Source: Bradymonadales bacterium (GTDB taxonomy: Bacteria > Myxococcota_A > Bradymonadia > UBA4248). Taken from it: a stretch of 64,000 nt of DNA. This document shows positions 15,114 to 53,062 of the stretch, piece by piece. The notes below the pieces were generated by a model. That model worked only from the letters and a program-made list of their open reading frames with translations. It was not told the DNA's origin and made no database searches. Numbering within the stretch: position 1 is the stretch's first letter; each line of letters starts with the position of its first letter. The stretch spans positions 3,697-67,696 of the forward strand of contig JBBAEA010000002.1 in assembly GCA_041656175.1 (NCBI GenBank), given 5' to 3'. Made by a program: the position numbers and the translations under genes.

Positions 15114-15187
15114 TACGCCCAGCAGGATTCGAACCTGCGACCCACGGCTTAGAAGGCCGTTGCTCTGTCCAACTGAGCTATGGGCGC
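15114..15187 (-). tRNA. tRNA-Arg (anticodon TCT)
   Basis: Reverse complement folds as GCGCCCA..AGCTCAGTTGGACAGAGC..ACGGC-CTTCTAA-GCCGT..GGTTCGAATCC..TGGGCGT with a discriminator A. Confidence 0.85.
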
Positions 15188-15193
15188 ATGTGA

Positions 15194-15267
15194 TCGGGGC
15201 GATAGGATTCGAACCTACGGCTTCCTGCTCCCAAAGCAGGCGCGCTACCAGACTGCGCCACGCCCCG
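15194..15267 (-). tRNA. tRNA-Pro (anticodon TGG)
   Basis: Reverse complement reads CGGGGCG..GCGCAGTCTGGTAGCGC..CCTGC-TTTGGGA-GCAGG..GGTTCGAATCC..CGCCCCG-A. Confidence 0.85.
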
Positions 15268-15717: not shown

Positions 15718-17796
15718 ATGAAAAAAATTGCGTTTTATTTATCAATCATGCTTATTGGCGCATTTTCAACGATTAGTTGTAATGATCAAGGTGATAACAA
15801 AAGCTGCGACGACGTTGAGTGTGGAGCTGATGAAATCTGCGAAAAAGGAGAGTGCGTTCCCAATGAAGTAGATCTCTGCAAAGACGTCAGTTGCGATCCT
15901 AACCAGCACTGCGAAAAAGGAGAGTGCGTTCCCAATGAAGTAGATCCCTGCAAAGACGTCAGTTGCAATCCTAATCAGCACTGCGAAAATGGAGAGTGCG
16001 TTCCCAATGAAGTAGATCTTTGTAAAGACGTCAGTTGCGATCCTAACCAGCACTGCGAAAAAGGAGAGTGCGTCGATAATACTGAAAATCCTTGCAAAGA
16101 CGTTAGTTGCGAAAAAGGCCAAAGATGTGTAGGGGGTACGTGCGTCGATAGCTGTACAGGCATTGTTTGTATTGACAATCACATTTGTAAAAACGGTGAG
16201 TGCGTTTTAGATAATGACAAACTTTGTGAGAATGTCACTTGTACGACAGGATTTCATTGTAGTGCGGGCGAGTGCGTAAAGATTGATCCTTGCGATGACG
16301 TATTGTGTGACCCTGGTTTTGTGTGCCAGTTGGGCAACTGCTACGACAAAGCCATCTTCCCTTGTCTCGGTGTAACTTGCCCCGATGATCAGGTCTGCGA
16401 AAGCGGCGTGTGCGTAGTCATAGATGAACACGTTGAATTTGAAGAACCCGTGGGCAATGTTGTACCTAACTGGGATTTTGAAGAGTGGGAGCTTAGTTCG
16501 CCTACTTCATGGCATAGTTTTGGAATAGAGGTCGTTGTTAGTAAAAATACAAGTAATCCAAAATCAAAATTGGCTGCCGTTAACATTAATAATCCGCTCA
16601 AAAATAACGCAAGACTAGAGTCTATCCCATTGACGCTTGATGTAGGGAAGTATTATTGCTCTGCTTGGCTTAAAGGCGAAGGCACGGTTTTATTGGGTGC
16701 ACGCCTATCTGATACCGATAATCCTTCGAAGGGAAAATACAAATATAACTCAGAGACAGTATTAAATGGAAGTGGCCCTTATAAAGAGGTCTTCTTTAAT
16801 TTTACTGTCGATGCGACCATTCAAAAGGTAACGATTCTCATTACCGTAAAGAACACGAGCGGAATGAATGTTAACGTTGATGCCATTTCTTGTGTTCGTG
16901 CCGCTGGAAATTGTGACAACGTAACTTGCAAAGAATGGGAAGAATGCCGAGAATATGATGGTAGCTGTCGACCAAAAATAAGTCGCTGTAATACGGCAGA
17001 TGACTGCAGCGAGTGGCAGACTTGTGACGCCAACCATTATTGTGTACTCGCCGAGGGGCGCTGCAAAAGTACAGTGGATTGTGATGAAAATAGTGATAAG
17101 CCAAAATGTGATGTCAAAACCAAAATTTGTGTTGCTGGCGATCCTTGTGAAGGGGTAACGTGCGACGAGTGGAAAACGTGTCAACGCGCATCTGGCTTGT
17201 GTGTACTCGATGAAAATCGCTGTATTACATCAAAGGATTGCCTCAAAGATAAACCTGCATGCGATGTTACGACGCACACTTGTCAGGACTCTACACACGA
17301 TTGTAACATCTTCCCCAACGGTGGTTTCGAAAAATGGGATGACTATTATATACCGTATCACGGCGATAATTACCTTCCCGATTTTTGGTATGGTTTATTT
17401 GATCATCTATGGGACAATAAATACAACTCGGAAATTGATCCCAAAAATATTAAGCAGTACACGACGTCCGTGCACTCTGGGAATTATGCCATGCAAATCA
17501 TTTTCACAGAGTTTGTAGCAGATCGCTTAGCTTCCGATGAATTTGATATTCCACCAGGTGCGTATACATGCTCTTATTGGGTTCGAGGTAAAGGGACGTT
17601 ACGTCACCGCAGCTATTCTTCAGGTGGCGAATCTCCGTACACGGACTTTTACCAAATTGATACCGATAAGTGGCAACGTGTAGAATTTAATGCGCCTGGC
17701 AATGTTCGAGAATTTAGACTTATCCTGTACGTTAGCCAAACTGATGCGAGTAAAGATCACGTACAGATCGACGACGTTGTCTGCACTAAAAACTAA
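15718..17796 (+). CDS. Secreted lipoprotein with tandem Cys-rich modules and two beta-sandwich (CBM/galactose-binding-like) domains; hypothetical
   Basis: 692 aa. Signal with lipobox ISC. Four or more copies of CKDVSC(D/N)PNQHCE(K/N)GECVPNEVD, followed by further C-x-C modules. Confidence 0.65.
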   Translation: MKKIAFYLSIMLIGAFSTISCNDQGDNKSCDDVECGADEICEKGECVPNEVDLCKDVSCDPNQHCEKGECVPNEVDPCKDVSCNPNQHCENGECVPNEVDLCKDVSCDPNQHCEKGECVDNTENPCKDVSCEKGQRCVGGTCVDSCTGIVCIDNHICKNGECVLDNDKLCENVTCTTGFHCSAGECVKIDPCDDVLCDPGFVCQLGNCYDKAIFPCLGVTCPDDQVCESGVCVVIDEHVEFEEPVGNVVPNWDFEEWELSSPTSWHSFGIEVVVSKNTSNPKSKLAAVNINNPLKNNARLESIPLTLDVGKYYCSAWLKGEGTVLLGARLSDTDNPSKGKYKYNSETVLNGSGPYKEVFFNFTVDATIQKVTILITVKNTSGMNVNVDAISCVRAAGNCDNVTCKEWEECREYDGSCRPKISRCNTADDCSEWQTCDANHYCVLAEGRCKSTVDCDENSDKPKCDVKTKICVAGDPCEGVTCDEWKTCQRASGLCVLDENRCITSKDCLKDKPACDVTTHTCQDSTHDCNIFPNGGFEKWDDYYIPYHGDNYLPDFWYGLFDHLWDNKYNSEIDPKNIKQYTTSVHSGNYAMQIIFTEFVADRLASDEFDIPPGAYTCSYWVRGKGTLRHRSYSSGGESPYTDFYQIDTDKWQRVEFNAPGNVREFRLILYVSQTDASKDHVQIDDVVCTKN
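15805..16080 (+). repeat. In-frame 66-bp tandem repeat (about 4 units) inside the Cys-rich lipoprotein gene
   Basis: gatctctgcaaagacgtcagttgcgatcctaaccagcactgcgaaaaaggagagtgcgttcccaatgaagta recurs with fewer than 5 mismatches. Confidence 0.8.
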
Positions 17797-20928: not shown

Positions 20929-21076
20929 TGGGGGTAGCGCGGGATCGCTGAGCAAAAGACGCTACAAGCGCACAAAATGCGATGGATGCGCGATTAGCAA
21001 ATACATCGCATTTTGTATTGCGCTTGTTGTCGAATTTTGCGAAGAAGCCCGCGCGTAGGGGGCTGCGCCCCCACAA
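20929..21076 (-). repeat. Family-1 structured element, copy 1d (inverted)
   Basis: GGGGGTAGCGCGGGATCGCTGAGC...CGCGCGTAGGGGGCTGCGCCCCCAC. Confidence 0.8.
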
Positions 21077-25877: not shown

Positions 25878-26031
25878 TTGTGGGGGGCTAAAGCCCCCCT
25901 ACGCGCGGGCTTCTTCGCAAAATTCGACAATTCGCGCATCATTTTGTGCAACGTTTCGACTATTCGTCGAACCATTGCACAAAATGCGCTCATTGCGCCT
26001 TTTGCTCAGCGATCCCGCGCTACCCCCCCCC
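25878..26031 (+). repeat. Family-1 structured element, copy 1e
   Basis: TTGTGGGGGGCTAAAGCCCCCCTACGCGCGGGCTTCTTCG ... GATCCCGCGCTACCCCCCCC. Confidence 0.8.
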
Positions 26032-26087
26032 AGCTTTAACGCAAAACACCATGCTCCCCCATGCAAAGCGTGAGACCTTTGCACGGC

Positions 26088-26500
26088 CTTTCGTGTTTTT
26101 CGTGGTAAAAATGCTGTTCGTGGCATTCGTGGTTCATAATTTAAAGACACGAAAGGCACGGAAGACCATAACAAATCAAGCTGGTTCTGAAAGAATAAAA
26201 AATCTTCTCGTGTGTTTTCGAGTTTTTCGTGGTTCATAATTTAAAGACACGAAAGGCACGAAAGACCATAACAAATCAAGCTGGTTCTGTAAGAATAAAA
26301 AACTTTTCGTGTGTTTTCGTGTTTTTCGTGGTTCAAAATTTAAAGACACGAAAGGCACGAAAGACCATAACAAATCAAGCTGGTTCTGTAAGAATAAAAA
26401 ACTTTTCGTGTGTTTTCGTGTTTTTCGTGGCAAAAAAATCTTTTCGTGTGTTTTCGTGTTTTTCGTGGTAAAAAAGCTTTCGTGGTAAAAAATCTGTTCG
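26088..26500 (+). repeat. Tandem array A: 3 units of about 100 bp plus 2-3 units of about 38 bp. Each long unit is an imperfect hairpin built from CACGAAA/TTTCGTG heptamers
   Basis: Unit starts at 26126, 26226 and 26325 are near-identical. TTTCGTGG(C/T)AAAAAA recurs. Directly preceded by an orphan family-3 left TIR, GAGACCTTTGCACGGC at 26072-26087. Confidence 0.85.
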
Positions 26501-26632
26501 CGCTTATAAACATAAGGTTATGATGGAAAAAATACGAAGCCTTGCTTCTACCTTCAAAATTTGTCACCACGCCCCTGCTCTCATAAACTTTGCATCAACG
26601 GCGCTTATGGGTGTTAGCGCGTTTCAGGGAGG

Positions 26633-27130
26633 ATGGAAATGCAAGGTCTTCGGGTTGTATTTGTTGCCATTGATAGCATTATCTCGATGGATGAAAAGTT
26701 TGGGAAGTGGCGCATAAATAAAGAGTTAATACAATCTTTGCGCTACCAATCACGTTTTGGTTACGCTGTCGTTGCGCTTTTTTCGCCGCGTATGCATGGA
26801 TTGTTACTCGAGGATGCAGCGGAGTGCGAGGAAGCGCTAAACTATTTGCAGCTTGTACTTAAATCGGCACGCTGCCCCGCGTTTACAGAGAATATTGTTC
26901 TTGATGAAGAACATAGCCCTGAGAATTTGCGCTCGTTCATGGCCTTACACCGCGTAAACACCGAAGGTTCAATGCTTTTTGGCGCTCCCGAATACGAAGC
27001 ACTCGCCAAAGCCCTAGACCTTGCCTATGGAACAGCCAAAGATACGCCAAAGAAAGCGCTTAGCCGCCCCTCCTTTAGGCAAGCGCTTGTACAGCGGTTG
27101 CAAACTGCCCTACATGCGATATGCTTATAA
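26633..27130 (+). CDS. Hypothetical protein
   Basis: 165-aa ORF. No recognisable family. Start ambiguous: the overlapping ORF at 26520 is probably spurious. Confidence 0.35.
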   Translation: MEMQGLRVVFVAIDSIISMDEKFGKWRINKELIQSLRYQSRFGYAVVALFSPRMHGLLLEDAAECEEALNYLQLVLKSARCPAFTENIVLDEEHSPENLRSFMALHRVNTEGSMLFGAPEYEALAKALDLAYGTAKDTPKKALSRPSFRQALVQRLQTALHAICL

Positions 27131-36928: not shown

Positions 36929-37110
36929 AAGGACGCTCTGATCAACACAAAAACCGTAGGGGCAGGTTTCAAACCTTCCCTTGCTTAAAGCAAGGAAAAT
37001 CAGGCGAACGTTTAAAATAAAGCCAATAAAATCAAGGCAGTATGCAAACAAAGGGTTCTAAGGTCGCTAGCCCTTAGCGGGGTTTGGGGCGGAGCCCCAA
37101 AAATAAATCA
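36929..37110 (+). repeat. Family-4 element, copy 4b, including the upstream TTAAGGAnnCTCTGA motif
   Basis: TTAAGGACGCTCTGATCAACAC..GTAGGGGCAGGTTTCAAACCTTCCCTTG...GGGTTCTAAGGTCGCTAGCCCTTAGCGGGGTTTGGGGCGGAGCCCCAAAAATAAATCA. Confidence 0.7.
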
Positions 37111-37127: not shown

Positions 37128-38795
37128 ATGCTAAAATTTCTAGCTTGCTATTTTTTGTCGCAAATGAGAAAATACCATCAAGCTTGTAGCTGGGTTAGGC
37201 GAGCATTTGCTTGTGGGTGCATGAGCTGGTTCTTACTTGGCACGACTACGCTAACGCTGAGCGCTTGTAAAAGAGATGTTTTTATAGGCGATAGCACGAC
37301 ACAGGATGGAAAGTCTATGCAGAGATTGCGAAAAGCAGCTTTGGCTGGCACTTGGTATACTGCTAATCCCAAATCCTTGCGAAAATCTATTGTTCAATAT
37401 TTAGAAGAAGCGCAGCCCAAGCGCATTGGCTTTGAGCAGAACCCCTTGGCTCTTGTTATACCGCATGCTGGGCATCAGTGGTCTGGCTCTACTGCAGCCA
37501 GTGCCTACGTCAATATTCCCAAAGCCAACGAAATTCGCCGCGTTTTTATATTGTCTCCAAACCATCGCATGCCAGTTCGTGGAGTGGTGACGGATCGTGT
37601 CGACGCGTTCTCGACACCGCTTGGGGATGTGCCTGTAGACAGTGCGCTCATCAATGATTGGTTGGAGCGCGACTTGATAGGCGAGAGCTCGCAAGCGCAC
37701 CGTCAAGAGCACGCTATCGAAATCCAGTTGCCCTTTCTACAAACGATATTGGAAGACTTCAGCATTGTTCCTCTCATTGTGGGACAGCTCGATAAAGATG
37801 AATTATTAAAATTTAGCAGGGCATTAAAAGAGAGTCTAAAACCCAACGATTTACTCGTCATATCGAGTGATTTTCTGCACTACGGCGAGGGATTTGGATA
37901 CGTTCCTTTTGGAGCACCAGTCATCGAAAATATTCGCCAATACGATATGGCCACTTTTGAGGCGATAAGCGCGTTAGATGTTCATGTTTTTGAAGAGCAT
38001 ATCTTAAAAGAGCCGCACTGCGCATGCGGTTCGAACTCGCTGTGGGTGCTTAGCGCAGTTTTTCAAGACAGCAAGAGCGTAGTTGTTAAGCTCGACTACA
38101 ACACATCCGCCATGATCTCGGGCGAAGACGACATGTCGGTCTCCTACATGGCACTAGCCGTGGTTCCCAAAACTTCTATTAAGGCTGATATTCAGTCTTC
38201 AACGGAGCATAATAAAATGATAAGCCAGAATCCATTGCAGCCAAATGAAACCATTCAAGCACTAAAACTGGCGCGCATAGCCTTGAACGCAGGGGTGGCT
38301 GCGGGTGAGAGCACAGATTTTGACCTCGACGCCATAAAGGCAGCTGAATTAGACTTAAGCCCTGTCTTTAAGGAAGAATACGGCGTCTTTGTTACACTTA
38401 AGCAAAACGACGAGCTACGTGGTTGCATTGGCAATATCTTGCCCTACGCCAATTTGGCGCGTTCTATCTGGGGAAGGGCGCAGGATGCTGCGTTGGGCGA
38501 CCCTCGTTTTGAAGATGTGCAGCCCGAGGAATTGGCGCATATATCTCTAGAGATATCAGTGCTAACGCGTCCGCAAAAAGTCACTAGCTTCGAAGATATT
38601 GTTATTGGGAAGCACGGCATTATTCTAAAAAAGCAAGGCAGAACCTCGGTCTTTTTACCGCAAGTAGCGCCTGAGCAAGGTTGGACGTTGGAGCAAACCC
38701 TAGGTGCTTTAGCGCAAAAAGCGGGCTTCTCTTCTAACGCGTGGCGAAGTGATACGCAGCTCGAAGTCTTTGAAGCGCAAGTATTCTCGGAGTAA
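37128..38795 (+). CDS. Fusion of a MEMO1-family domain (AmmeMemoRadiSam system protein B) with a C-terminal AMMECR1 domain (protein A)
   Basis: 555 aa. LALVIPHAGHQWSGSTAASAY..ILSPNH is Memo-like. The C-terminal GVFVTLKQNDELRGCIGNILP is the AMMECR1 signature. A likely signal or lipoprotein start sits at the internal Met near 37221. Confidence 0.75.
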   Translation: MLKFLACYFLSQMRKYHQACSWVRRAFACGCMSWFLLGTTTLTLSACKRDVFIGDSTTQDGKSMQRLRKAALAGTWYTANPKSLRKSIVQYLEEAQPKRIGFEQNPLALVIPHAGHQWSGSTAASAYVNIPKANEIRRVFILSPNHRMPVRGVVTDRVDAFSTPLGDVPVDSALINDWLERDLIGESSQAHRQEHAIEIQLPFLQTILEDFSIVPLIVGQLDKDELLKFSRALKESLKPNDLLVISSDFLHYGEGFGYVPFGAPVIENIRQYDMATFEAISALDVHVFEEHILKEPHCACGSNSLWVLSAVFQDSKSVVVKLDYNTSAMISGEDDMSVSYMALAVVPKTSIKADIQSSTEHNKMISQNPLQPNETIQALKLARIALNAGVAAGESTDFDLDAIKAAELDLSPVFKEEYGVFVTLKQNDELRGCIGNILPYANLARSIWGRAQDAALGDPRFEDVQPEELAHISLEISVLTRPQKVTSFEDIVIGKHGIILKKQGRTSVFLPQVAPEQGWTLEQTLGALAQKAGFSSNAWRSDTQLEVFEAQVFSE

Positions 38796-38824: not shown

Positions 38825-39221
38825 CTTTCGTGTCTTTAAATTTTTAACCACGAAAGCCACGAAAACACACGAAAAGTTTTTTATTCTTAGATGTCCAGCT
38901 TGATATGTAATAATCTTTCGTGCCTTTTGTGTCTTTAAATTTTTAACCACGAAAGCCACGAAAACACACGAAAAGTTTTTTATTCTTAGATGTCCAGCTT
39001 GATATGTAATAATCTTTCGTGTATTTCGTGGCAAAAAAAAAGCTTTCGAGCCTTTCGTGTATTTCGTGGCAAAAAAAAGCTTTCGAGCCTTTCGTGTATT
39101 TCGTGGTAAAAAAGCTTTCGAGCCTTTTGTGTATTTCGTGGCAAAAAAAGCTTTCGCGCCTTTCGTGTATTTCGTGGTAAAAAAGCTTTCGAGCCTTTTG
39201 TGTATTTCGTGGCAAAAAAAG
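38825..39221 (-). repeat. Tandem array B: 2 units of about 100 bp plus 6 units of about 37 bp. Reverse-complement, diverged relative of array A
   Basis: Units at 38835 and 38934 are near-identical. Then six copies of CGTGTATTTCGTGG(C/T)AAAAAAAGCTTTCGAGCCTTT. About 85% identical to the array-A unit on the opposite strand. Confidence 0.85.
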
Positions 39222-39224
39222 GCC

Positions 39225-40787
39225 TTATTGATTTAAAGAGTGCAACGCTTTTTTTGCCATATCGACGATTTCGATCGACTGTGATTCTTTGCTGTCTTCA
39301 TCGATGGCGGAAACTTCCAAAATTCCGTTGACATCGATTTTGAAGCTCACTTTGATTTTCGGGATCATACGTGGGGCTGGGCGGATGCCGCTCAACTCAA
39401 AGGCTCCCAAAAACGTGTTCTCCTCGCAGCGCTTACCCTCGCCTTGGTAAACCGATATGACGACGCTCGATTGATTGTCGCGGTTTGTGGTAAAATGGCG
39501 ATGCACGCGGTGAGGAACTTTAGTGTTTTTGGGGATTAGCGGTACAAAGACCGAGTTTGCCGCCTCGATCCCAAGGGTAAGCGGTGTGATATCGAGCAGC
39601 AGAAGATCGCTTTGTGGCGTAGCCAAGCTCATCGCCTGTATCGCAGCGCCAATACCGACCACCTCGTCTGGGTTCATGCTCGTGTTCAGCGGCTTTGAGA
39701 GCCACTTTTGCACCATTTCGCGAATGAGCGGCATACGCGTCATTCCGCCGACCATAATGAGCTCATCCAGATCCTTGATCCGTAGCCCCGCGTCGCGCAA
39801 CACGCGCTCGCAGATCCTTAAAGAGCGCTCCACGAGCGGCAAGCACAAGTTCTCGAAATGCGAGCGGTAAACGACTTCCGAAATTCCAAGATTCTCGTTG
39901 ATATTTGGCGATATTCGCGGCAGCTTGATTTCAGTGTGTTCGTTTTGAGATAGCTGAATTTTGGCGTATTCCGCCGCATCGACTATACGCTGCATCGCCA
40001 TCTGATCGAGCGAAAGATCGATGCCGTGCTCTGATTTGAAGTTCTTGATTAACCAATCGGCTAGTATTTGGTTAAAGTCGTTGCCACCAAGAAAAGTGTC
40101 GCCGCCAGTGCCAATGACGTTGAACAGCCCCTCGCTGATTTCGAGCACCGAAACGTCGAAGGTACCACCGCCAAAATCGTAAACCGCCACGCGCTGATTT
40201 TTCTCTGAGCCAAAGCCGTAAGCAAGCGCCGCGGCAGTGGGTTCATTGATGAGGCGCAGAACCTCTAAACCTGCGAGTTCCGCAGCCTCTTTGGTGGCGG
40301 TTCGCTGGACGTTATCAAAGTGCGCTGGTACCGAAATAACGGCTTGCTTAACCTCGCAGCCAAGGGCATACTCGGACATTCTTTTGACTTTTTTAAGTAC
40401 AGCGGCGCTTACTTCCACAGGGCTTATACGTTGCCCACCGATTTCACAAAGAGGCATGCCATCGGGATCCGCGACGACGCTGTAGCTGATATATGGCAAG
40501 GTTTTTTGTACGTTGTCGGAGGAGAATTTTTGCCCAAGTAAACGCTTGGACGAGTGTACCGAAAGGTAGGGTTGCGTCGCCATCTGCGCTTTTGCCAAGT
40601 GCCCCACGAAAAACCGCCCTTCGCGATTCAAGGACATCACCGAGGGCATGGTGGAGTGACCTGTCTCATCGAGTATTATTTGTACCGCGCCGCCCTTTAC
40701 GACGGCAGCGCAAGTGTTTGATGTACCTAAATCAATACCGAGTACGGGCATGCAACTCCTGTTTACTAACAAGGGGCTAAAATTCAA
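39225..40787 (-). CDS. Hsp70-family ATPase with shortened substrate-binding domain (DnaK/HscC-like paralogue)
   Basis: 520 aa. [31 protein letters not shown]. No long C-terminal lid or EEVD region. The start could be the internal Met at 40751. Confidence 0.75.
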
Positions 40788-45044: not shown

Positions 45045-45117
45045 TGGCTAGGGACGGAATTGAACCGCCGACACGAGGATTTTCAGTCCTCTGCTCTACC
45101 TACTGAGCTACCTAGCC
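45045..45117 (-). tRNA. tRNA-Phe (anticodon GAA), copy 1
   Basis: Reverse complement reads GGCTAGG-TA-GCTCAGTAGGTAGAGC-A-GAGGA-CTGAAAA-TCCTC-GTGTC-GGCGG-TTCAATT-CCGTC-CCTAGCC-A. Confidence 0.85.
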
Positions 45118-45132
45118 CTAGGGCGAAACAAA

Positions 45133-45205
45133 TGGCTAGGGACGGAATTGAACCGCCGACACGAGGATTTTCAGTCCTCTGCTCTACCTACTGAGCTACC
45201 TAGCC
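45133..45205 (-). tRNA. tRNA-Phe (anticodon GAA), copy 2
   Basis: Identical 73-nt sequence 88 bp downstream of copy 1. Confidence 0.85.
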
Positions 45206-51206: not shown

Positions 51207-52745
51207 TTAAAAGAACCTAATCAGGGGGAAGATACCTATTGCCTCTAAGGTGAAAACAATAATATAGAGAATGACAATACCAACGCCGACTATAATGAAT
51301 AGGAATTTGGGATCGGAATTTGCTTTTTTGAGCAAGGCTTTTGCGTCTTTATTGGAGGAACTGGTACTTTCGGCGAGCTCGGCGCCAAGGGAATCAGGCT
51401 CGTTAGTGGCGCTTTGCTTGATTTTTGCGCTGTTTGCAAGAACGCTCGCGGGGGTATCAATACTGGTAATAAGGAGCAAGTCCTCGTAGATTTCAGCCGA
51501 TGTTGCGTAGCGCTCTTGGGGTAATTTGGCTGCTGCCTTTCGCAGTAGTGCTGCTAAGGCTGTATTGTTCCATGACTTGGGTAGTTCCAGCTCATTGTAG
51601 GACTGCTTGTAGGCGATATCAAAGAGGCTAGTGCCTTCAAAGGCGGGTTTTCCGAGAAGCATTTCGTAAAAGATGAGCGCGAAAGCGTAAACGTCGACGT
51701 TTGGGCTGAGCACTTCGTTTCGGAGTTGTTCAGGTGCCATGTATTGCGGAGAGCCGTAGACTTTGTCGGTGCTCATGGTGATGTCATGGGCGGTGAATGC
51801 GCTTTCAGCGCTCATACATTTTGAGAGGCCAAAGTCGAGTATTGTTACGAGGTCTTCGTATCCCTCTTTGGAGCTGAGGATAATGTTGGCGGGTTTAAGA
51901 TCACGGTGAACAATGTCGCACTTGTGTGCTTCGCGTAGTCCCTTGAGAATTTGCAGAGCGATTTTGCGCGCTGTTAGGAACGGTATACGCCCTTGCTCAA
52001 GTCGCTTTTCCAGAGTTTCGCCATCGAGCAGCTGCATTGTCATCCAAAGTGCGCCATCACTGCGTTTACCAAAGTGGTAGAGCCGCACAATGTTGGGGTG
52101 TTCAAGTCGTGAAACCAGATCGACTTCGCGCTCAAAGCGTTTTTGTATAGAGTCGACCTCGTTCTCGGCTTCAGGGAGTATCATTTTGAGCGCTTCGTCG
52201 CGGCCAAGATTGAGGTTTTTAACTTTAAATACCGCACCAAAGCCGCCTTTTCCCAGCATTGACAAAATGCGGTAGTGCTCAAAGTTATCGCCAAAGGTGG
52301 GAAGCTGATAGTCACGATCTTCCCAGCCCGATGAATTTAGGAGCTGGATTGTCATCTCCGCGCCACTTTGCTTTGGCGCGTGTTTAGGCGCGCCATCAAG
52401 TTTAATGGTCATCTCCGCGCTATTTTGCTTTGGCGCGTGTTTAGGTGCGCCATCAAGTTGAATGGTCATCTCCCCGCTATTTTGCTTTGGCGCGTGTTTA
52501 GGCGCACCATCAAGTTTAATGGTCATCTCCCCGCTACTTTGCTTTGGCGCGTGTTTAGGCGCACCATCAAGTTTAATGGTCATCTCCCCGCTACTTTGCT
52601 TGGGCACATAGTCATGTACAAGATCCTGCTCCGTTGTTGTATCATCAGCATGAGCTTCTGTGTTGTGGGAGCTAACAACAGCATCATGAGTCTCAATGGT
52701 ATGGGGGCCGCTATTTATTTCACTTTGTTCATAATCGTTATGCAT
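51207..52745 (-). CDS. Ser/Thr protein kinase (Hanks type) with N-terminal 20-aa tandem repeats and a C-terminal TM anchor
   Basis: 512 aa. GKGGFGAVFKVK. HRDLKPANIIL. DFGLSK. Five copies of APKHAPKQ(S/N)SGEMTI(K/Q)LDG. Confidence 0.8.
   Translation of the reverse strand: MHNDYEQSEINSGPHTIETHDAVVSSHNTEAHADDTTTEQDLVHDYVPKQSSGEMTIKLDGAPKHAPKQSSGEMTIKLDGAPKHAPKQNSGEMTIQLDGAPKHAPKQNSAEMTIKLDGAPKHAPKQSGAEMTIQLLNSSGWEDRDYQLPTFGDNFEHYRILSMLGKGGFGAVFKVKNLNLGRDEALKMILPEAENEVDSIQKRFEREVDLVSRLEHPNIVRLYHFGKRSDGALWMTMQLLDGETLEKRLEQGRIPFLTARKIALQILKGLREAHKCDIVHRDLKPANIILSSKEGYEDLVTILDFGLSKCMSAESAFTAHDITMSTDKVYGSPQYMAPEQLRNEVLSPNVDVYAFALIFYEMLLGKPAFEGTSLFDIAYKQSYNELELPKSWNNTALAALLRKAAAKLPQERYATSAEIYEDLLLITSIDTPASVLANSAKIKQSATNEPDSLGAELAESTSSSNKDAKALLKKANSDPKFLFIIVGVGIVILYIIVFTLEAIGIFPLIRFF
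52345..52610 (-). repeat. 60-bp in-frame tandem repeat (about 4.5 units) within the kinase gene
   Basis: gctttggcgcgtgtttaggcgcaccatcaagtttaatggtcatctccccgctactttgct recurs. Confidence 0.8.
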
Positions 52746-52965: not shown

Positions 52966-53062
52966 AAAAATACTTTTCTTAGCAAGTTTGATGCGGGTTC
53001 CAGTTTCAAAGAACAAAATACTTGTCTTAGCAAGTTTGATGCGGGTTCCAGTTTCAAAGAAC
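52966..53062 (+). repeat. 51-bp tandem duplication (2 copies) abutting the left end of MITE 3c
   Basis: CTTAGCAAGTTTGATGCGGGTTCCAGTTTCAAAGAAC occurs twice. Confidence 0.7.

Follow-up and report, generated by a model that had tools for sequence, protein, structure and literature searches.

The stretch of DNA analysed here, hereafter the window, comprises 64,000 nucleotides of contig JBBAEA010000002.1 (positions 3,697 to 67,696) from the Bradymonadales bacterium assembly GCA_041656175.1, a metagenome-assembled genome. Its gene content is that of an ordinary chromosome, as exemplified by dnaN, argS and a murein ligase gene. The subject of this report is a tandem array of short intergenic repeats at 38825-39221, termed array B, together with a related array at 26087-26503, termed array A. 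Array B occupies the entire 430-bp spacer between the 3' ends of two convergent genes. On its left lies a Memo-AMMECR1 fusion gene (AmmeMemoRadiSam B/A; 37128-38795, + strand), which ends 29 nt before the array, and on its right an Hsp70-like gene encoding 520 aa (39225-40787, − strand), the stop codon of which is 3 nt from the array end. The first-pass annotation had described a tandem array of about 100-bp and then about 37-bp units between the 3' ends of these two genes, and both the array and its flanks are confirmed. Tandem Repeats Finder reported a period of 99 with 2.1 copies and 96% matches at 38825-39030, and a period of 35 (71 too) with 5.8 copies and 91% matches at 39014-39221. The Hsp70-like protein matches the HSP70 profile to position 501 of 599 and is without the C-terminal end of the canonical domain; the gene is followed by an ORF of 477 aa with no Pfam match.

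The building block of the arrays is an inverted repeat, in which two to three CCACGAAA-type heptamers are followed by a loop and by two to three TTTCGTG heptamers ending in GG, the heptamers of each arm being spaced 9-10 nt apart. Array B begins with a leading fragment (38825-38847, + strand), consisting of a partial right-arm heptamer pair CTTTCGTGTC and a 13-nt linker TTTAAATTTTTAA, which opens the 99-bp periodicity. Long unit 1 (38848-38933, + strand), delimited by sequence, repeat finding and folding, is composed of a left arm CCACGAAAGCCACGAAAACACACGAAAAG with three heptamers (38848-38876), a 38-nt loop (38877-38914) and a right arm CTTTCGTGCCTTTTGTGTC with two heptamers (38915-38933). 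Long unit 2 (38947-39031, + strand) has its left arm at 38947-38975 and its loop at 38976-39013, and its right arm CTTTCGTGTATTTCGTGG (39014-39031) doubles as the first arm of the short tier. The short tier (39014-39221, + strand) was delimited by repeat finding and holds 5.8 units of 35-37 bp, in each of which a three-heptamer right arm (CTTTCGAGC CTTTCGTGT ATTTCGTGG) is followed by (C/T)A6-9G. The consensus of the short unit is CTTTCGTGTATTTCGTGGCAAAAAAAGCTTTCGAGC, of which the unit in the first-pass annotation is a shifted register. A 12-bp inverted repeat, TGGCAAAAAAAG / CTTTTTTTGCCA (39210-39259), with arms 100% complementary and 26 nt apart, links the last short unit with the end of the Hsp70-like coding sequence, covering its final codons; the stop codon occupies 39225-39227.

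Array A displays the same two tiers. It is led by solo arms, CCTTTCGTGTTTTTCGTGG + TAAAAATG + CTGTTCGTGGCATTCGTGG, read from the sequence at 26087-26133 (+ strand). The long tier (26126-26430, + strand) comprises 3.1 units of 99 bp (97% by Tandem Repeats Finder) and is the reverse-complement homologue of the array B long unit. Each of these units consists of a left arm ACACGAAAGGCACGAAAG with two heptamers, a 38-nt loop, a right arm CTTTTCGTGTGTTTTCGTGTTTTTCGTGG with three heptamers and a 14-nt linker; the linkers in the long units measure 13-14 nt and are made of A/T. The short tier of right arm and A-run units, about 38 bp x 2.4 (26423-26503, + strand; 26396-26484 by Tandem Repeats Finder), decays into CTTTCGTGG TAAAAAAT CTGTTCGCGC. 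A promoter-like site (26561-26589) is found about 60 bp past the end of array A and precedes an ORF at 26633. A homopolymer run of nine C residues (26023-26031) lies about 55 nt upstream of array A and is the same in all assemblies read.

Rotation-aware alignment of the long units of array A with the reverse-complemented units of array B gave 81-89% identity, the units A2 and A3 being aligned ungapped, as compared to only about 60% on the same strand; this range encloses the identity of about 85% noted earlier. The number of heptamers in the left and right arms on the + strand is 2/3 in array A and 3/2 in array B, a swap that is expected of an inverted copy. The short TTTCGTGG and A-run units (35-38 bp), however, lie on the + strand at both arrays. 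At both loci they are right arms alone, with three heptamers ending in CGTGG and then (C/T)A6-9(G/T), and the short tier of array B resembles its own right arm (spacer CC, 9-nt period) more than that of array A. The common strand of the short tiers and the closeness of the one in array B to its own arm indicate that array B is not array A wholly inverted. Thus, the proposal of an inverted copy holds for the long units, which are inverted and diverged members of one family, and not for the short tier. Judged from these alignments, the short tiers, each apparently descended from the arm of its own array, most likely arose independently at each locus, which suggests a common mechanism of amplification rather than a conserved and inherited architecture. 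The two-tier layout itself, earlier taken as kept at both loci, does recur at the two arrays and at a third locus in another genome described below. Within the window, the heptamer TTTCGTG/CACGAAA occurs 45 times as compared to 12.6 ± 3.2 in shuffled sequences, and 36 of the 45 occurrences are inside arrays A and B.

The first-pass annotation had named a lack of further arrays in the genome as a refuting result, and related elements were found in many genomes. The 19-mer CTTTTCGTGTGTTTTCGTG, which represents one arm and is common to arrays A and B, matches 27 loci in a species-representative genome collection, where about 4 matches are expected by chance (an estimate for a 596-Gbp collection that assumes uniform base composition). 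By their record titles these loci belong to Acidobacteriota (Pyrinomonadaceae and others), Verrucomicrobiota (Opitutaceae), Gemmatimonadota, Planctomycetota (Gimesia), KSB1, Hydrogenedentota and Desulfobacterales, as well as to alpha- and beta-Proteobacteria (Neisseriaceae, with Vogesella and Deefgea isolates, Variovorax and Asticcacaulis). The carriers include Deefgea chitinilytica, Sulfidibacter corallicola and the 5.2-Mb Pyrinomonadaceae chromosome OY969475.1. An inverted CACGAAA-type arm, which was outside the search pattern and was read by eye, is present within 350 nt in about 22 of the 27 loci (13-300 nt upstream). Arms of three heptamers, no heptamer having more than one mismatch, were counted 51 times across 203 kb of locus sequence and 11 times in the window, and none was obtained in shuffled sequences; several loci carry 2-5 arms within 8 kb. 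Two of the matches, L009 and L030, lie inside an ORF and look like chance.

The design of the arm is best seen in the 89 distinct arms that were collected, and it may be written as a duplex, (TTTCGTGNN)3. Three is the modal number of heptamers per arm (55 of 89), the spacing between heptamers is 9 nt in 79 cases and 10 nt in 73, and in 85% of the arms a G directly follows the outermost heptamer, with A-rich sequence next to it. The spacer positions between heptamers vary freely, so that conservation is periodic and confined to the heptamers. Typically, a run of T precedes the hairpin and a run of A follows it. The loops are non-coding and range from 13 to 300 nt; among copies of a single genome they differ in both length and sequence (L007, L011), and they are common only within arrays or between orthologous loci. 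Arms without an inverted partner also exist, namely the short tiers of arrays A and B and the arms at L003, L023 and L026. L014, from a record titled Neisseriaceae, carries a multi-tier array with 2.2 copies of a 164-bp unit and 6.8 copies of a 10-bp one; the latter (L014 770-837) is a perfect (TTTTCGTGTG) x 6.8, a unit of heptamer plus spacer expanded within the right arm in the manner of a microsatellite.

Several sequences of related layout were observed beside the family. In a Hydrogenedentota metagenome-assembled genome (MAG) (L019 1500-1700), a second heptamer family, CACAGAG/CTCTGTG, is nested in the loop of a TTTCGTG element and has the same layout, CCACAGAG TC GCAGAG G CCACAGAG ... 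CTCTGTG TC CTCCGTG A CTCTGTGG. CTCTGTG/CTCTGCG triplets adjoin a TTTCGTG arm in two metagenome contigs (L028 725-750 and L029 1010-1035), and the window shows no excess of CTCTGTG (4 vs 4.3 expected). In Neisseriaceae-titled records (L013 7540-7600 and 7790-7850; L022 3075-3130) the element loops hold GGTTCGAGTCCTGG..., which resembles a tRNA T-arm or 3' fragment. A viral sequence (L031 4480-4550, IMGVR_UViG_3300032038_003105) carries five direct CACGAAA repeats with a period of 10-11 nt and no inverted arm, just upstream of AAGGAGG-N8-ATG and between phage tail and lysis genes.

Database comparisons did not assign the element to a described family. Rfam, searched at gathering and permissive thresholds with the window and four of the loci, has no family for it; the matches at the gathering threshold are tRNAs and one TPP riboswitch, all away from the arrays, and those at E ≤ 10 are generic hairpin models of the miRNA-precursor type, with scores of 9-25 bits where the thresholds are 40-245. 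No match to array A was obtained by blastn in plasmid and phage collections. Full-text literature searched for the heptamers and double heptamers yielded no bacterial context, the only occurrences being the yeast SCB element and primers. The orthologous loci in relatives were considered for comparison and set aside, as identity to the closest Memo orthologues is no more than 47-52%, and these loci are non-syntenic and element-free. Motifs with a possible likeness to the heptamer are the ACGAAAA motif of phage Mu ends and of Tn3-family inverted repeats, the MraZ binding repeats (GTGG-type with a 10-bp period) and the heptad repeats of CtsR.

The symmetry of the element was analysed in 25 non-identical copies. 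CGTGG/CCACG is near-invariant, and the palindrome goes on for 2-10 nt outward of this conserved core with compensatory changes, which leaves the ends of the element undefined. The base pair adjoining the core is formed in 23 of the 25 elements and is variously GC, AU, UA, CG or GU. The covariation score is 0.273 as compared to 0.120 in shuffles, of which 0 out of 500 reach 0.273, and slid controls give 0.09-0.15. The covariation that the first-pass annotation had looked for in the stem arms is therefore present at the stem base. The symmetry of the arms fits a selected hairpin and transposon-like ends bound by one protein alike, and does not discriminate between them.

With respect to gene context, the elements lie in spacers between convergent, tandem and divergent genes alike. 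Their neighbours are housekeeping genes, as judged from 123 neighbouring ORFs, for which the 25 commonest Pfam families out of 175 were listed, and from 10 further ORFs. Neither a recurrent partner gene nor a transposase gene was found in that same set. Target-site duplication is absent in 20 of 24 elements and amounts to a single nucleotide in the other 4.

Copy number was found to differ, with identical flanks, between assemblies of the same Bradymonadales species. In GCA_964449095.1, array B has 3.0 long and 7.8 short units as compared to 2.1 and 5.8 here, with identical flanks, and its third long unit has a loop nearer to that of array A. In JGI 3300060803, array A has four long units, an 18-bp expansion of one left arm by two heptamers and one short unit fewer. 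Three further assemblies of the species end inside the arrays. The changes in length occur at 9-10, 35-38 and 99 bp, and changes at three nested periods are as slippage or unequal exchange of near-identical arms would yield. Unit-specific substitutions argue for the copy-number differences being real alleles. In GCA_964449095.1, a 102-aa "gene" has been called wholly within array A (L039 3-311), which is almost certainly spurious and due to a stop-poor repeat.

Taken together, these observations are interpreted, with moderate confidence, as a non-coding repeat akin to repetitive extragenic palindromes (REP) and miniature inverted-repeat transposable elements (MITEs), with arms that are putative rows of protein-binding heptamers, amplified in place and variable in copy number. 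The element is an inverted repeat, each arm of which usually presents three TTTCGTG heptamers 9-10 bp apart, about one helical turn, and ends in CGTGG/CCACG with T/A runs alongside, the loop sequence being arbitrary. The arms may serve as rows of sites for a sequence-specific protein, since conservation sits on the heptamers and not on the spacers or loops, and since the quality of arm pairing is not favoured. The likeliest binder would be the enzyme that spreads the element, the arms being built like transposon ends with subterminal repeats. The arrays expand and shrink at the nested periods of 9-10 bp (heptamer step), 35-38 bp (arm plus A-run) and 99 bp (element plus linker), presumably by replication slippage or by unequal recombination among their numerous near-identical arms. 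On this interpretation array B would not specifically serve the Memo or Hsp70 genes and would simply reside in a tolerant intergenic spacer.

Several observations weigh against this interpretation. At L006, L008 and L027 the palindrome runs 6-10 bp into copy-specific sequence, where a plain insertion model fails. In about 350 kb of locus DNA there is no autonomous copy with arms around a transposase or recombinase gene, and no pair of empty and filled sites was seen, so that the mobility of the element is putative; the Pfam listing of the 123 ORFs covers the 25 most frequent families, and a lone transposase gene could escape it. The divergence of loops within a genome is unusual for a recently spread MITE, the 64-kb window holds two element-bearing loci only, and three distant relatives with Memo orthologues 47-52% identical have no element in 11-21 kb. 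The phylum labels are the record titles of metagenome-assembled genomes, and short-read metagenome assembly error may account for a part of the copy-number differences.

An action at the RNA level, as in the REP hairpins of E. coli, would make the units 3'-UTR stem-loops that block exonucleases, insulate facing transcription units from each other or act as terminators, with array B serving the Memo and Hsp70 genes; this is considered improbable. It draws support from array B filling the convergent spacer, where no other terminator-like hairpin is present, and from the folding of the long units, which on the + strand is better than that of shuffled sequences in array A (−26.4 kcal mol−1, z −3.6; − strand −19.6) and in array B (−19.9 kcal mol−1, z −2.9; − strand −17.5, z −1.2). 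Moreover, both genes flanking array A are encoded on the + strand, and it is on this strand that the 17-bp stem of array A includes three G.U pairs. Among the 25 elements, however, wobble-type arm mismatches show no strand bias (30 top vs 26 bottom; per-element asymmetry P = 0.8), mismatches of the transversion type (63) outnumber those of the transition type (56), and the better-folding strand bears a mixed relation to the strand of the neighbouring genes and does not track it. Terminator-like sites with a G+C-rich stem and U-tract amount to two weak ones per region against 1.4-1.6 expected, with none inside the units, and the order of the flanking runs, T before and A after, is opposite to that of a terminator. 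A partner arm is absent from the short tier, and the Rfam search returned nothing but generic hairpin models far under threshold. A scan for sigma-70 promoters was at chance level, and a sigma-54 promoter in TGGCA-A(n)-GC, proposed by eye, was rejected as its GG and GC are separated by anything from N7 to N10, depending on the unit. The "hairpin unit" of the first-pass annotation is thus upheld in its geometry (z −1.2 to −3.6), but no evidence of selection on transcript folding was found. The lack of wobble strand bias, the majority of transversions, the fold strand unlinked to genes and the heptamer-periodic conservation render recognition of duplex DNA by a protein better supported than an RNA structure formed by one particular strand. 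It is very improbable that the array is a coding repeat, a CRISPR locus, an antitoxin RNA of a type III system or an artefact of assembly. The 35-37 nt period is like that of ToxI-type antitoxin and CRISPR repeats, array B can be read through without stops in one − strand frame, and assemblies break at the arrays. However, repetition at 91% extends over the full 35-37 bp with no unique spacers, the flanking genes have no cas domains, and the neighbours are the 3' ends of the Memo-AMMECR1 and Hsp70 genes with no toxN-like gene. The open frame is out of frame with Hsp70 and is not among the ORFs of at least 80 aa; the strand is poor in T, which accounts for it, and the length steps in the short tier are not multiples of 3. 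The same arrays, with their unit-specific substitutions, also recur in independent assemblies of different samples, which speaks against an artefact.

If a protein recognises the arms, it need not be a mobilising enzyme. The arms may be site arrays for a host protein that is conserved and reads direct repeats spaced by one helical turn, for instance a nucleoid-associated protein or a regulator acting as a multimer, and may act as architectural, insulating or regulatory DNA kept by selection rather than by selfish spread, a reading to which we give a minor chance. Conserved heptamers with free spacers and loops, the 9-10 bp phasing, the solo direct-repeat arms, the persistence of one heptamer across genomes of different phylum labels and the end of array A about 60 bp before the promoter-like site are all consistent with it. 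Against it stand the occurrence of elements in every kind of position relative to genes, the differing copy number among assemblies of one species, the element-free distant relatives and the palindromic symmetry with compensatory changes at the stem base, which rows of direct repeats would not need; no candidate protein has emerged either. A further, distinctly doubtful, alternative is a classical REP or REPIN system, in which a RAYT (Y1 HUH transposase), its gene lying at another site of each genome, would move the repeats as single strands. Like REP, BIME and REPIN sequences, the element is a short, non-coding, intergenic palindromic repeat of strain-variable copy number without target duplication; two inverted modules make a larger hairpin as in REPINs, and, as in BIMEs, multiple copies are strung into tandem mosaics in which the orientation alternates and two kinds of linker take turns. 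The REP unit, however, is an imperfect palindrome of 20-40 nt, whereas the module here is three direct heptamers one turn apart, with no palindrome by itself. The GTAG or CGTC tag is absent, the ends being CCACG/CGTGG followed by lineage-specific paired bases. REP sequences and other intergenic palindromic repeats (BIME, MITEs) are usually lineage-specific, unlike the heptamer found here in genomes labelled as many phyla. No Y1 transposase of the RAYT type was detected near the elements among the 25 most frequent families of the 123 neighbouring ORFs, nor in the 10 further ORFs.

For a mobile non-coding repeat with protein-binding arms, the ends of the IS607 family appear to be the nearest mechanistic analogue of the arm design. 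IS607-family ends carry several short, direct subterminal motifs, often helically phased, that are bound cooperatively by dimers of the serine transposase TnpA, have GG termini and no target duplication, and occur across very distant lineages (PMC6188088); they flank tnpA/tnpB and are described as being without true terminal inverted repeats (PMC6188088). By this described layout, the elements are similar in having direct motifs at both ends near helical phase (three per arm, 9-10 nt) and in showing no target-site duplication. The near-invariant CGTGG/CCACG recalls the GG termini and GG target of the family, but the symmetry continues 2-10 nt outward of it. The elements differ in their near-symmetrical arms and the non-coding loop of 13-300 nt, and no cognate transposase was found at the loci. 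Membership of the family is not claimed, as no autonomous copy, empty site or defined end was obtained. Bacterial MITEs such as Correia/NEMIS of Neisseria are alike in being non-autonomous intergenic elements of about 100-300 bp with terminal inverted repeats, capable of forming hairpins in DNA or RNA; MITEs of the DDE-transposon/Correia type are unlike the present element in that it shows no target-site duplication, has internal sequence unconserved within a genome and has internally repetitive arms. Pneumococcal BOX elements, with their variable number of boxB, and mycobacterial MIRUs are likewise intergenic modular repeats with one sub-module varying in tandem copies, but their sequences are unrelated, are confined to one genus or species and are without phased-heptamer arms. 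Plasmid iterons or a parC-type centromere array were also considered because of the phasing, and were rejected owing to the chromosomal housekeeping context and the lack of a blastn match of array A to the plasmid or phage collections.

Other repeats and features of the window are recorded here for completeness. Intergenic GGGG(C/G)-N3-5-(C/G)CCCC hairpins flanked by T/A-runs are located at 25882-25899, 21059-21071 and 37086-37098 of the window and at L040 9-28. Two are exact matches as compared to 0.04 expected, and one lies between a permease gene and array A. They look like the real terminators of this genome or another small repeat, and two Logan contigs start there. A tandem repeat of 57 bp x 4.5 (94%) at 52351-52605 lies in the 5' part of a Ser/Thr kinase ORF (51207-52745, − strand), and another of 48 bp x 2.0 (52967-53062) is situated just upstream of it. 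An in-frame repeat of 72 bp x 3.8 (15837-16112) is contained in the gene for a 692-aa CBM_4_9 protein (15718-17796). Adjacent pairs of tRNA genes on the − strand are present at 45045-45205 and 15114-15267, the former being an exact 88-bp tandem duplication.

A tandemly amplified intergenic palindromic repeat is a familiar kind of sequence, whereas Rfam and the literature that could be searched show no precedent for the tri-heptamer design or for its conservation in several phyla. On a broader and more tentative reading, which we regard as possible rather than probable, the TTTCGTG tri-heptamer palindrome would represent an undescribed, multi-phylum family of non-coding DNA, the arms of which are recognised by an unrecognised mobilising enzyme or by a conserved DNA-binding protein, with the Bradymonadales arrays as hot spots of amplification in place. 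Such an enzyme might be a serine or other transposase that leaves no target duplication, and the CACAGAG/CTCTGTG family nested within it at L019 would be a second one of the same layout. As the arrays break short-read assemblies and vary in copy number from sample to sample, they give rise to contig ends and to spurious gene calls and are potential strain markers. One seven-base word, present three times per arm at one-turn spacing and kept across phylum labels, implies a protein partner of conserved specificity, and naming that partner would give either a new mobile-element mechanism or a new, widely shared DNA-binding system.

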